Shown: positions 34,309 to 62,300 of the stretch, in pieces
Position numbering within the stretch: position 1 is the first letter of the stretch
Layout of the letters: each line of letters opens with the position of its first letter
IMG/VR virus record: IMGVR_UViG_3300028414_000637
Length of the DNA: 64,000 nt
Strand: one strand, 5' to 3'
DNA from: an uncultured virus (IMG/VR IMGVR_UViG_3300028414_000637)
Taxonomy: Duplodnaviria > Heunggongvirae > Uroviricota > Caudoviricetes
Made by a program: the position numbers and the translations under genes
The notes under the pieces: generated by a model
Told to the model about the DNA's origin: nothing
What the model saw: the letters and a program-made list of their open reading frames with translations, nothing else
Database searches by the model: none

Positions 34309-34385
34309 GGACCCGTAGTTCAGCTGGATAGAATGCCTGTCTACGAAACAGGAGGTCAGAGGTTCGAATCCTCTCGGGTCCGCCA
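34309..34385 (+). tRNA. tRNA-Arg (anticodon ACG)
   Basis: GGACCCG/CGGGTCC acceptor stem, CCTGT-CTACGAA-ACAGG anticodon arm, GGTTCGAATCC T-arm, encoded CCA. Confidence 0.95.
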
Positions 34386-60066: not shown

Positions 60067-60921
60067 ATGGATCAAAACATACTAGAAAAATTTCAAAATT
60101 ATCGCAAAAATATTGACTTAGAGTTTATTTCAAAAACTCACGTTCATTATTGTACCCCTTGTTATGGTGGACAAATCACAGAGCCTTTCTTTCGTAGTTG
60201 GACTAAGGCACATATGATGTATACTAGACACGAAATACCTTACTCAGTTACAACTAGTGCAAATGAATCGTTGATATCAAGAGCCCGTTGTCATATGGTT
60301 GCGTACTTTATGGCTAATCCAAAAGCAACACATTTAATGTTTATTGACGCTGATGTTAATTTTGATTGTATTGATATCTTACATATGTTGCAACATGATA
60401 AAGATATTATAGTCGGTGCATATCCAAAAAAAGATTTAGATTGGAGAGGCATAGAACGTAGAATACTAGGTGGCCGTGCGGATACATTAGAAGATTTGAA
60501 ACAAGCAGGCGCCAATTATGCATTGAATTTTGATTGGAACATAGAAGAAGACAATTCACGTAAAATAAAAACTAAAGATGGGTTGGTAAAGTTACGTGAC
60601 GCGGCAACTGGTTTTATGTTGATAAAACGTGAAGTAATTGAAAAAATGATTTCCGCTTATCCTGATTTGTATTTTAATAATGATTTGAATATGGATGAAG
60701 AATTTGCTAAATGGACTTATCTATTTTTTGATTGTATGCATGAACAAGATACAAAGCGGTATCTATCAGAGGACTACGCATTTTGTCGTAGATGGCAAGC
60801 ATTAGGTGGTGAAGTTTGGCTAGACCCACTAATCAATTTAGACCATGTAGGGCACTTTACCTTTTCTGGTAATGTTGGTAAAATATTTCAACAAAATTCT
60901 TCAATCGAAGATGACATATAG
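60067..60921 (+). CDS. GT-A fold glycosyltransferase-like protein
   Basis: TPCYGG, NESLI.RAR, FIDAD (DxD), GAYPKK, TGFMLI.R, SEDY.FC.RW...GG. Confidence 0.75.
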   Translation: MDQNILEKFQNYRKNIDLEFISKTHVHYCTPCYGGQITEPFFRSWTKAHMMYTRHEIPYSVTTSANESLISRARCHMVAYFMANPKATHLMFIDADVNFDCIDILHMLQHDKDIIVGAYPKKDLDWRGIERRILGGRADTLEDLKQAGANYALNFDWNIEEDNSRKIKTKDGLVKLRDAATGFMLIKREVIEKMISAYPDLYFNNDLNMDEEFAKWTYLFFDCMHEQDTKRYLSEDYAFCRRWQALGGEVWLDPLINLDHVGHFTFSGNVGKIFQQNSSIEDDI

Positions 60922-60946
60922 TAAAAGAGGCCTAAGCCCCTTTTAC
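60922..60946. terminator. Probable bidirectional terminator between convergent units
   Basis: GTAAAAGAGG/CCCCTTTTAC imperfect inverted repeat. Confidence 0.5.
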
Positions 60947-60996
60947 TTTTTTGTACCATTGATGAAATCTAATTCTTCTTCTGTGTAAGGCCACAT
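60943..60996 (-). CDS. 17-aa micropeptide MWPYTEEELDFINGTKK
   Basis: Starts 1 nt after the upstream ORF's stop; ends at the terminator. Confidence 0.45.
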   Translation of the reverse strand: MWPYTEEELDFINGTKK

Positions 60997-60997
60997 A

Positions 60998-61135
60998 TCA
61001 AAAACTTCCATACATGTTGTGTTTAAATTCAGAAATCTCATTGGCTTTTTTATAATAGCCTCTACTTCTTAGTTCTCTAATTGCCATACAGTAACTTCTG
61101 TATTCCATTGCTTTTATAAATCTTTTAAACATCAT
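60998..61135 (-). CDS. 45-aa microprotein (MMFKRFIKAMEYRSYCMAIRELRSRGYYKKANEI...)
   Basis: Translated by hand; coupled to neighbour; paralogous motif with 61125..61313. Confidence 0.55.
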   Translation of the reverse strand: MMFKRFIKAMEYRSYCMAIRELRSRGYYKKANEISEFKHNMYGSF

Positions 61136-61313
61136 TTTCTCTTAACATTAATGCTTTAGCTTCTTTGATATACCCTTGACGGTACAACTCACTTGCCGCT
61201 CTTGCACGACCGGCACTCTCACCAAACGCCCATATTGCCATAACCGCTGTTGTAAGAGCCATCTTTATTATTTCACATATTCTGCATGTGCTTCTAATTA
61301 TCATCGTATTCAT
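61125..61313 (-). CDS. 62-aa microprotein
   Basis: TAATG coupling to upstream ORF; GRARAA.EL.RQGY..EA. Confidence 0.6.
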   Translation of the reverse strand: MNTMIIRSTCRICEIIKMALTTAVMAIWAFGESAGRARAASELYRQGYIKEAKALMLRENDV

Positions 61314-61483
61314 TATACCCATCCCTTAAGATTATGATTTACTGTAGTTTCACGCCTTTGTAATACTCGTTGTCTACGCTCTAAGTCAACTAAGTCGTGC
61401 GAACTAGCCAAGTAATCATATTCTATTTGTTCTATTGTTCTTGGTTTTAATTTCTTTAGTAATTTTAAAATAAACTTAAGCAT
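61313..61483 (-). CDS. 56-aa DUF3563-like microprotein
   Basis: Translated by hand: ...EYDYLASSHDLVDLERRQRVL...; GGAAGG SD. Confidence 0.6.
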   Translation of the reverse strand: MLKFILKLLKKLKPRTIEQIEYDYLASSHDLVDLERRQRVLQRRETTVNHNLKGWV

Positions 61484-61676
61484 TAAAATTCCTTCCGATA
61501 TGTCCTAATCCGTGATATCCTTTTGGTCCATCACCTGTTTCTATCATTACTTGATAGGCATACTGCCAATCATTCTTGTATTCTGTTTTGGCCCAAAGCA
61601 TCATGTCCTTTTGCAACTTATTAGAAGTTCTGGACGAAAAGACACTCACAAGGCCGCTGAAAAAGTTCAACGTCAT
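61476..61676 (-). CDS. 66-aa microprotein
   Basis: GGAG SD; WAKTEY..DW.YAY. Confidence 0.6.
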   Translation of the reverse strand: MTLNFFSGLVSVFSSRTSNKLQKDMMLWAKTEYKNDWQYAYQVMIETGDGPKGYHGLGHIGRNFNA

Positions 61677-61708
61677 TTACGTTCTCCGTATAAAATAAAT
61701 TTTCTTTG

Positions 61709-61818
61709 TGCTTGAGGAAAGCAATACCCCGGTCTTTTCCGGCGTCATTCGTTTGTTGTGGCAGTCTGCGCCTGCCCTGGTCTTTCCCAGTGCCAATACA
61801 AGAAAGGACTTCTTGTAT
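61709..61818 (-). ncRNA. Candidate structured 5' leader or ncRNA
   Basis: GC-rich island with several hairpins, including two covarying RAAAGA-loop hairpins. Confidence 0.5.
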
Positions 61819-62004
61819 CACTTTTATTTATATAAATATACACGAATAAATGATGAATTAACAGTGTTTTTTCGACATTCCCGCTATGTCCTAAATGCAA
61901 AGCTACTTGCATACCTCGATAACCTCACTGCATATCAAAATAACTATTGATTTTTTATATTAAATATGTTATTATAACTAAGTAATATTACAAAAGGAGA
62001 CAAT

Positions 62005-62289
62005 ATGCCAAAAGTTTTTTGTTCAAAGTATAATGAAGAATTGCCCGGATTAGAAAAAGCACCATTTCCGGGAGAAGCAGGTAAACGAGTACTTGAGAAT
62101 GTCTCAGAAAAAGCATGGAATGAATGGTTAAATTTTCAAACTATTTTGATAAATGAGAATAGACTAAATTTAATGGATGAAAGTGCTAGGGCATTCTTGT
62201 CAGAGAATAGAGATAAGTTCTTATATGAGCCAGGCGAACTTGCTATGCCTGAGCAATATAGGGATCCTAATATCCCTGACCTAAGATAG
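62005..62289 (+). CDS. yggX: Fe(II)-trafficking / oxidative damage protection protein YggX
   Basis: VFC.K...E..GL...PFPGE.G.R....VS..AW..W...QT.LINE.RL. Confidence 0.9.
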   Translation: MPKVFCSKYNEELPGLEKAPFPGEAGKRVLENVSEKAWNEWLNFQTILINENRLNLMDESARAFLSENRDKFLYEPGELAMPEQYRDPNIPDLR

Positions 62290-62300
62290 AAAGATAGTAA

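Follow-up and report, generated by a model that had tools for sequence, protein, structure and literature searches.

On the minus strand of the 64,000-nucleotide stretch of DNA considered here (from an uncultured virus, IMG/VR record IMGVR_UViG_3300028414_000637; the whole stretch is called the window in the following), about 140 nucleotides (nt) constitute the 5' untranslated leader of an operon of microproteins. This leader belongs to a real and widespread family of RNA leaders of marine jumbo phages. It is composed of a series of hairpins, two of which have a NANAGA hexaloop closed by a G-C pair (called G-NANAGA-C hairpins below), and it ends with an invariant block shortly before the ribosome-binding site (RBS). 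Judged from the sequence, it would be a protein-binding cis-regulatory leader, a tentative reading to which we give a probability of roughly 40%.

An earlier note on this DNA had described a structured leader with two paralogous hairpins ahead of microprotein genes. The conservation, the compensatory changes and the assembled RNA contigs presented below all agree with that description.

Architecture and covariation of the leader

The elements of the leader are given here in the 5' to 3' order of the minus strand. The 5'-terminal hairpin, H0 (61795..61819), has 9–10 base pairs (bp), with the arms AUACAAGAA (61818-61810) and UUCUUGUAU (61804-61796) around the loop GUCCU. It is followed by the first G-NANAGA-C hairpin, H1 (CUGG-GAAAGA-CCAG, 61777..61790), and by H2 (GGCAG-GCGCAGA-CUGCC, 61760..61776). 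Next comes a CA-rich, single-stranded linker (61746..61759), which ends in AAUG and is directly followed by the ACG that opens H4; the linker sequence of the relatives is UUACAAGYGAUUGACG. H4 (61726..61745) is the second G-NANAGA-C hairpin, AC-G-CCGG-AAAAGA-CCGG-G-GU, in which an R-G mismatch and two outer pairs extend the stem. The invariant block GGUAUUGCUUUCCUCAAGCA (61709..61728) contains the last hairpin, H5 (UGCUU-UCCUC-AAGCA, 61723-61709). The remaining stretch (61674..61708) consists of an A/U-rich spacer, the Shine-Dalgarno (SD) sequence GGAG (61687-61684), which is separated from H5 by 21 nt, and the ATG (61676-61674) of the first open reading frame, ORF1. The linker and the spacer were assigned from the sequence, H0 and H5 from the sequence and RNAfold, H1 and H4 in addition from the covariation of their stems, and H2 from RNAfold and RNAalifold.

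The minimum-energy structure calculated with RNAfold includes all five hairpins, whose loops in the window are GUCCU, GAAAGA, GCGCAGA, AAAAGA and UCCUC. The minimum free energy of the leader is −42.6 kcal mol−1, compared to −30.1 ± 3.5 kcal mol−1 for dinucleotide shuffles (z = −3.61), and none of 200 shuffles folds as well. The GC content is 0.52 at 61700-61799 and 0.23–0.43 within about 600 bases on each side, which bears out the GC-rich island of the earlier note; the exception nearby is a coding stretch (61150-61249) with 0.50.

All of the hairpins claimed earlier are indeed present on the minus strand at the positions given above. The proposal that two of them are 20-nt hairpins of like architecture holds for the 4-bp stem and the RAAAGA loop, as well as for the full form of H4, but probably not for the outer GC-A/G-GC pairs by which H1 would reach 61793-61774. 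These pairs (G61793 C61792 with G61775 C61774) are doubtful because the bases belong to the 5' arm of H2, which itself covaries.

The covariation was analysed in a set of 89 distinct leaders, from which 11 loci without upstream hairpins (coding or chance matches) and loci with less than 135 nt upstream had been left out. These leaders contain 142 G-NANAGA-C hairpins with stems of at least 3 bp, compared to 4.3 (at most 14) in 200 shuffles. Each leader has one to four of them, and their complementary arms form 33 distinct pairs. For 60 distinct hairpins, the share of paired cells is 90.0%, compared to 58.2% in shuffles, and the covariation score of 0.793, compared to 0.167 in shuffles, is not reached by any of 500 shuffles; slid controls are at most 50% paired and score at most 0.205. 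Pair 3-16 is formed in 58 of the 60 hairpins, by five pair types, and G-U pairs are found among the stem changes (GU twice and UG once at 2-17, GU three times at 3-16, UG six times at 4-15 and UG once at 5-14). While the stems change in this way, the loop positions A2, A4, G5 and A6 are invariant in all 60 hairpins. The layout of H4 is repeated in the H4 modules that were listed for comparison, where a 4- or 5-bp stem is followed by a G-G or A-G mismatch and then by C-G and A-U pairs.

H2 was recovered by RNAalifold from a plain MAFFT alignment of the 89 leaders that was not fitted to the structure. At its four pairs, 29, 1, 23 and 24 of the 89 sequences are changed on both sides. An all-against-all analysis of column covariation, made for long-range pairs with alignment A2, recovered H2 alone, the rest being swamped by G-U noise. 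The compensatory changes that had been noticed within the window are thus matched by covariation in homologues, both in the stems of the H1/H4 type and in the double changes of H2.

H5 could not vary in the set selected by the pattern of the block, and its variants come instead from loci collected via the protein. The stem occurs there as AUGCU/AGCAU, GGAUG/CAUCC and GAU/AUC, with a pyrimidine-rich loop containing CC being retained (UCCUC, CCCUC, CUUUCCCAAAAA, AACCUCAA, AACCAUAA and UUCCUAAA among the variants). The anti-SD loops proposed in the earlier note can thus be kept for H5, whose pyrimidine loop persists through the changes of the stem, but not for H0, since its loop GUCCU is not kept in relatives (GUUCUA in locus L054).

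In the place of H0, relatives have a 5'-terminal hairpin with the compensatory change from AAGAA/UUCUU to AAAAA/UUUUU (L005, L008) or, in many cases (e.g. L019, L030, L055, L079 and L083), an H-type pseudoknot, GAGC-gaCCUCA-GCUC-A6-UGAGUGG. Stem 2 of this pseudoknot has the compensatory variants CUCA/UGAG, CACC/GGUG, AUCA/UGAU, UUCA/UGAA and UCCA/UGGA, and its mean length of 4.18, compared to 3.72 with permuted partners, is not reached in any of 500 permutations.

The sequence GCAAU is present in the 5' part of 18 of the 89 leaders (e.g. L022, L044, L056, L066, L099, L122 and L133), mostly as the loop of a 5' hairpin with sequence-variable stems; the H0 loop of the window is GUCCU instead. Because GCAAU is complementary to AUUGC of the invariant H5 block, the loop may make a long-range contact with the block, in competition with the H5 stem.

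The layout of the family is then as follows. A promoter-like NATAAATA box precedes a variable 5' module, after which come H1, H2, a CA-rich linker with UGACG at its end, between zero and three additional hairpins, H4 and finally H5. Depending on the clade, the 5' module is an H-type pseudoknot or a hairpin, which may be long or, as in the window, short.

This layout bears on the possibility that the leader works like a riboswitch, sensing an ion or a small molecule, with H5 as the expression platform. A long, conserved and structured 5' untranslated region (UTR) ahead of small proteins would be in line with such a function. However, with one to four interchangeable hairpins and three or four 5' modules, the architecture is modular, and there is consequently no single conserved multi-helix junction or pocket. 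Furthermore, no Rfam riboswitch matches, including glutamine and Downstream-peptide, there is no terminator, and no fold consistently sequesters the SD: over the leader family, the mean pairing mass between the SD and H5 is 0.20 and the mean probability of the SD being unpaired, P(unpaired), is 0.38. We therefore consider a riboswitch to be very unlikely. For the window, thermodynamic folding predicts a P(unpaired) of 0.75 for the SD and a pairing mass with H5 of 0.0, so that the masking of the SD by H5 is unsupported here; it is strong only in some relatives (0.93 in L058).

The leader family, its operon and its transcription

The 3' block, GGUAUUGCUNUCCUYAAGCA (search pattern GGTATTGCTNTCCTYAAGCA), is found exactly in at least 119 viral stretches of IMG/VR. 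In the GTDB genomes there are 11 exact matches to the pattern; four of these have the whole leader and are contigs of marine metagenome-assembled genomes, including one of 335 kb, and seven are without it. About nine chance matches are expected from 596 Gb. A blastn search against 50,697 GenBank phage records gave no match for the leader of the window, for that of a relative or for the 1.3-kb region, and the element has so far been seen only in uncultured sequences. We propose to define the family by (a) the 3' block or a compensated variant of it, (b) at least one G-NANAGA-C hairpin and (c) a location before a WAKTEY-type operon. The window has the exact block, two such hairpins and a WAKTEY ORF1.

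The block is single-copy in the 101.6-kb record of which the window is a part (with up to two mismatches; once in the window itself). When up to three mismatches are allowed, it is likewise found once in each of three records of 187–237 kb and in a complete genome of 342.6 kb that has terminal repeats. Among homologous loci, it lies nearly always 20–33 nt before the start codon of the WAKTEY microprotein, and at least one leader hairpin is present at 55 of the 57 distinct ORF1 loci. A mobile repeated cassette is ruled out by the single copy per genome and by the single family of downstream ORFs, as opposed to diverse genes.

The same facts speak to a role at the DNA level, in which the element would serve in replication or as a site of recombination or shuffling, the hairpins being incidental. 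Conserved cassettes of promoter plus hairpin, called PeSL, are thought to mediate gene shuffling in phages of the T4 type. The present element, however, occurs once per genome, always in one orientation and before the same operon, and it is covered by RNA contigs (see below). In addition, an RNA is favoured over a DNA element because the compensatory changes include G-U pairs. A DNA-level element is thus extremely improbable.

The operon is single-copy and codes for four or five microproteins, all on the minus strand. ORF1 (66 amino acids (aa), 61476..61676) is of the WAKTEY family, named after the motif WAKTEYxxDWxYAY. ORF2 (56 aa, 61313..61483) overlaps it by 8 nt, ends in NLKGWV and is a DUF3563 protein (Pfam PF12086, E = 1.9e-7, 31.4 bits, above the gathering cut-off of 26.9). 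ORF3 (65 aa, 61125..61322) is a 'GESAGRARAA...QGY..EAK' microprotein with homologues after ORF2 in most related loci, and ORF4 (45 aa, 60998..61135), supported by the ORF list and by related loci, is a basic 'AMEYRSYCMAIRELR' microprotein. ORF5 (32 aa, WPYTEEELDFI, 60943..61041) is the weakest gene call, with similar C-terminal ORFs in L207 and L214. ORF1, ORF3, ORF4 and ORF5 match no family of Pfam, NCBIfam or PHROG.

The motif [AR][KR]xEYxx[DE]W is present in 77 of 95 distinct products of the first ORF; the others are truncated at the end of the locus, belong to chance loci, or are DUF3563-like, DUF1127-like or 'GRARAA' starts. In an alignment of 46 members of the ORF1 family, A29, E32, Y33 and W37 are invariant. 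A profile search with the family among 1.84 billion cluster representatives gave 187 at E ≤ 0.001, the best 150 of these 187 being 38–165 aa long, and the ten clusters examined come from metagenomes only, 'hypothetical protein' being the most specific name among them. The ORF1 protein of the window itself was seen on 208 contigs, and the linked microprotein is encoded in 292 viral stretches.

DUF1127 proteins are known for RNA binding and for PhoR control. At position 2 of 57 distinct loci, the ORF is, judged by motif, DUF1127-like in 39 cases and DUF3563-like, as it is in the window, in 13; the remaining five are of neither type. A check with Pfam confirmed DUF1127 in three of three cases; for DUF3563, one further locus exceeded the cut-off and another narrowly missed it. 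The 'GESAGRARAA' ORF comes next in most loci, and the 'AMEYRSYC' ORF is often present. Where the order of the ORFs is listed, both DUF types are mostly at position 2, the DUF1127-like exceptions at position 3 being L163 and L220. With each locus scored for every family, the two types are never recorded together in any of the 57 loci, and a C-terminal NL[KR]GW[VI] tail is common to the DUF3563-like ORF2, many of the DUF1127-like ORF2s and some ORF1 proteins. The DUF1127-like and DUF3563-like ORFs are suggested to be interchangeable or related. In some relatives (L168:1305-1526; also L170 and L173), the last ORF of the operon has 74 aa and matches ATP synthase subunit c (Pfam ATP-synt_C, E = 8.3e-13).

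The source DNA is part of the genome of a marine jumbo myophage. The 101.6-kb IMG/VR record is 28% complete according to CheckV and codes for a tail sheath, a terminase, UvsX, a DnaB-like helicase and a ribonucleotide reductase. The terminase has its nearest counterparts in the jumbo myophages PA5oct (55% identity), Atu_ph07 and Vibrio phage 2.275.O, and related loci are found on contigs of up to 342.6 kb. A tRNA gene is located at 34309-34382 on the plus strand (67.2 bits). The leader itself sits in a divergent intergenic region, with the minus-strand microprotein ORFs on one side and a yggX-like gene (62005-62289, plus strand; Pfam Iron_traffic) on the other.

Upstream of H0 lies a TATAAATA box (61825..61832, minus strand), a putative promoter element of the T4-late type or of the extended −10 type. 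For 43 of 57 distinct related loci, a search of the 200 nt before the ORF1 start finds a [TAG]ATAAATA box; longer leaders are missed in this count. In the 101.6-kb fragment, TATAAATA is rare, with six occurrences on the plus strand and three on the minus strand. At the present locus it can be read on both strands (minus 61832-61825, plus 61831-61838) within UAUUUAUAUAAAUA, and the microprotein operon and the yggX-like gene may therefore have back-to-back promoters that share one AT-rich region. We infer a transcript start at about 61815-61820, and the operon is probably transcribed late.

A second conserved stretch, 61858-61935 (both strands), is located upstream of the TATAAATA box and, read on the minus strand, contains the inverted repeats GCAAGUAGCUUUGC and GGACAUAGCGGGAAUGUC. 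L004-L008 and L054 share this stretch; in other clades, its place is taken by another conserved sequence. The yggX-side RNA contigs start at 61858-61902, and the stretch may therefore be the 5' UTR or an operator of the yggX-like gene.

The leader is present in RNA libraries. Six marine metatranscriptome runs contain 84–91% of the sampled words of 60900-62300, and the coverage by RNA contigs was examined in four runs from four studies. The contigs (61065-61803, 61087-61809, up to 61770, and 61709-61814) contain the leader together with ORF1-3, the first two spanning all of these. On the yggX side, the contigs begin at 61858, 61902, 61890 and 61997, and 61815-61857 is uncovered in all four runs. 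The leader contigs stop 11–22 nt 3' of the TATAAATA box, and a late start of the T4 type would be expected about 6–8 nt after it, but contigs cannot map starts; as it stands, the gap is a weak hint that agrees with transcription beginning a few bases beyond the box. In run X20, a 1245-nt RNA contig matches only 61709-61738 (the 30 nt of H4-H5) and then diverges, with a reported joint of 61164/61709. Most simply, it comes from a related phage with which the conserved block alone is shared, and is not a deletion variant.

The transcript data can also be viewed in terms of a passive expression element. The 5' hairpin and the stems would then shield a late mRNA from RNases that depend on the 5' end, the CA-rich strands would serve as a ribosome standby site or enhancer, and there would be no specific ligand. 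Every clade indeed has a stable structure at the inferred 5' end, in spite of its differing sequence and type (hairpin, long hairpin or pseudoknot), and the SD of ORF1 in the window is predicted to be open, as mentioned above. The contig depth, although a poor measure, is higher for the leader and operon than for the yggX side in the four runs (30.5, 42, 27.9 and 19.4 compared to 4.95, 4.6, 10.9 and 6.07). On the other hand, stabilisers need neither an invariant 20-nt block nor a loop as strictly kept as that of the G-NANAGA-C hairpins, which makes this explanation rather unlikely.

A possible mode of action

In the mechanism that we tentatively propose, the RNA would begin just after the TATAAATA box and fold into H0, H1, H2, H4 and H5, of which H5 would present its pyrimidine-rich, anti-SD-like loop about 20 nt before the RBS. 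The reiterated G-NANAGA-C hairpins would constitute putative protein-binding sites, the likeliest binder being a small basic protein of the operon itself, that is, the DUF3563 protein (DUF1127 in relatives), ORF3 or ORF4. The occupancy of these sites, together with H5 as the effector part beside the RBS, would then influence the translation and/or the stability of the operon mRNA, in an autoregulation akin to that of the ribosomal-protein and T4 gp32 leaders.

A cis-acting, protein-binding leader is favoured because the number of sites varies, because the loop is strictly kept while the stems change, because the element occurs once per genome in tight linkage with the operon, and because there is a precedent in CcaF1 (see below). 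With one to four hairpins and interchangeable 5' modules, reiterated binding sites fit better than a single ligand pocket. The earlier note had left protein sites, a riboswitch and a small RNA (sRNA) as options; the number of hairpins and their modularity lean to the first of these, although they do not settle the choice.

It is important to point out that several observations weigh against a protein-binding leader. ORF1, its most constant partner, is predicted to have two helices and a hydrophobic N-terminus (at an AlphaFold pLDDT of 68, which is uninformative) and gives no hint of RNA binding. ORF2 of the window is DUF3563 and not DUF1127, which makes the RNA-binding precedent indirect here. 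The operon can do without the leader, since ORF1 stands behind a short, different 5' UTR at two distinct loci (L160/L161 and L190/L192). In the 101.6-kb fragment, three G-NANAGA-C hairpins are found, two of them in the leader, compared to 2.3 expected; those elsewhere are not beyond chance, so that there is no sign of a wider regulon in this fragment. As to the covariation score, the three loop-adjacent pairs were required by the selection of the hairpins, and the free evidence comes from pairs 2-17 and 3-16 and from the variety of pair types. Finally, the RNA contigs, being assemblies, do not reveal the strand or the true ends of the transcripts and may derive from DNA carried over.

Another option considered is a trans-acting sRNA derived from the 5' UTR, that is, cut from the operon mRNA as a phage counterpart of cuckoo/CcsR. 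Its H5 loop would pair with the SD or G-rich sites of host or phage mRNAs, or it would act as a sponge for a host RNA-binding protein. According to the available part of PMC8034643, hairpin sRNAs with anti-SD loops are located in the 5' or 3' UTR of DUF1127 genes at CIN1 and are released by RNase E, and a DUF1127-like gene is present in 39 of the 57 related operons. Moreover, the 20-nt H5 block is conserved beyond the needs of a local hairpin, as would be the case if a conserved partner paired with it or recognised it. However, neither the window region nor 12 relatives match ar14 or any other sRNA family of Rfam, the leader is without the CCUCCUCCC motif, and no terminator follows H5. The 101.6-kb fragment contains no extended complementary target of H5, with at most 12 of 15 bases matching at other places in it. 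The RNA contigs continue from the leader into the ORFs, although contigs cannot exclude processing. Taken together, we find such an sRNA a doubtful explanation, comparable in this respect to the passive element.

One can also speculate on a phage version of the cuckoo-RNA/DUF1127 module, in which a multi-hairpin RNA would work with the RNA-binding microproteins encoded downstream of it. If this RNA were processed and acted in trans late in infection, its G-NANAGA-C hairpins would titrate a host RNA-binding factor and its H5 loop would pair with RBSs, so that it would be a riboregulator of host takeover and more than a leader. This we regard as quite unlikely.

If the leader indeed is a protein-binding regulatory element, it would represent an undescribed and widespread RNA family, with the exact block in at least 119 viral stretches, and a defined RNA hairpin motif would become linked to small proteins (DUF1127, DUF3563) whose functions are only now emerging. 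It would also add a further case of riboregulation to the biology of jumbo phages. With the RNA and its candidate protein partners being neighbours in the genome, what the microproteins bind can be tested directly.

Comparison with known systems

The earlier note could not assign the leader to a known family, and it has no match in Rfam 15. At the gathering thresholds, the window matches tRNA alone. A cmscan of 61400-62100 at E ≤ 10 gives eight weak matches, none of them cuckoo, ar14, RSs0680 or a riboswitch (the best is RF_site1, with 21.3 bits compared to 40), and a cmscan of 12 related loci at E ≤ 1 gives five, none within the leaders. In a full-text search of the literature, the H5 block has no match in either alphabet, and two 12-nt hairpin strings matched unrelated contexts. 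DUF3563 was not found in the literature searched, and none of the papers listed for DUF1127 together with phage mentions DUF1127. A likeness of GACG...GGAAAGACC to the A2058 region of 23S rRNA was discarded; being short, it is possibly due to chance, and it is absent from the loop variants GAUAGA and CAAAGA. In the portion of PMC10690425 that was available, a catalogue of 10,006 candidate structured RNAs is described, together with RNAs of phages from IMG/VR that lie upstream of GP20 and GP32 and are candidate cis-regulators; the present leader motif may be one of the 10,006.

The closest analogue is the alphaproteobacterial CIN1 locus of cuckoo RNA and DUF1127. According to the same available part of PMC8034643, the cuckoo/CcsR/NfeR hairpin sRNAs (Rfam ar14, RSs0680) are co-transcribed there with the DUF1127 gene ccaF1, and CcaF1 binds RNA and affects the RNase E-dependent maturation of the CIN1 hairpin sRNAs. 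As far as CIN1 is described in that text, the phage loci share with it the array of short hairpins beside a very small gene of the DUF1127 type (ORF2 is DUF1127-like in 39 of 57 relatives), the location in a UTR (5' or 3' in CIN1) and at least one pyrimidine-rich, anti-SD-like loop. The phage leader differs from it in having no ar14 match and in having NANAGA loops instead of CCUCCUCCC, with H5 (UCCUC) as the only pyrimidine-rich loop. Further differences are the DUF3563 protein as ORF2 of the window, the unrelated WAKTEY microprotein as the first gene, the jumbo phage as the host, and no sign of sRNA processing. Membership in the cuckoo family was therefore rejected, in view of the missing covariance-model match, the missing CCUCCUCCC loop and the DUF3563 in place of DUF1127 in the window.

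A different kind of control is described, in the available part of PMC12218461, for a DUF1127 gene of Sinorhizobium meliloti, whose leader acts by attenuation that depends on an upstream ORF and in which C-rich codons pair with the RBS. To the extent covered by that part, the two systems have in common a small gene of the DUF1127 type and an mRNA leader with a C-rich element able to pair with the RBS. The phage leader has no conserved upstream ORF and no terminator-like structure, however, and pairing of H5 with the SD is not predicted in the window.

There is also a resemblance, and only that, to boxB of phage lambda and its protein N, since boxB too has a short G-C-rich stem and a purine-rich, GAAAA-like loop and is repeated in a leader. 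The phage hairpins considered here differ in having the hexaloop NANAGA closed by G-C instead of a GNRA-like pentaloop, and in lacking the context of a nut site and downstream terminators. Furthermore, no N-like arginine-rich protein was identified.

Autoregulatory protein-binding leaders are known for ribosomal proteins, and the operators of T4 gp32 and gp43 are of the same kind. In contrast to these, the downstream genes here are microproteins without assigned function, and the binder is only putative. What the present leader has in common with them, and with the GP20 and GP32 candidates in the available portion of PMC10690425, is a conserved and structured 5' UTR directly before the genes, in which the reiterated hairpins may be binding sites. 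As far as can be told by comparing sequences, the leader belongs to no described family, and it resembles in kind both the cis-regulatory arrangements and those of the CIN1 type.

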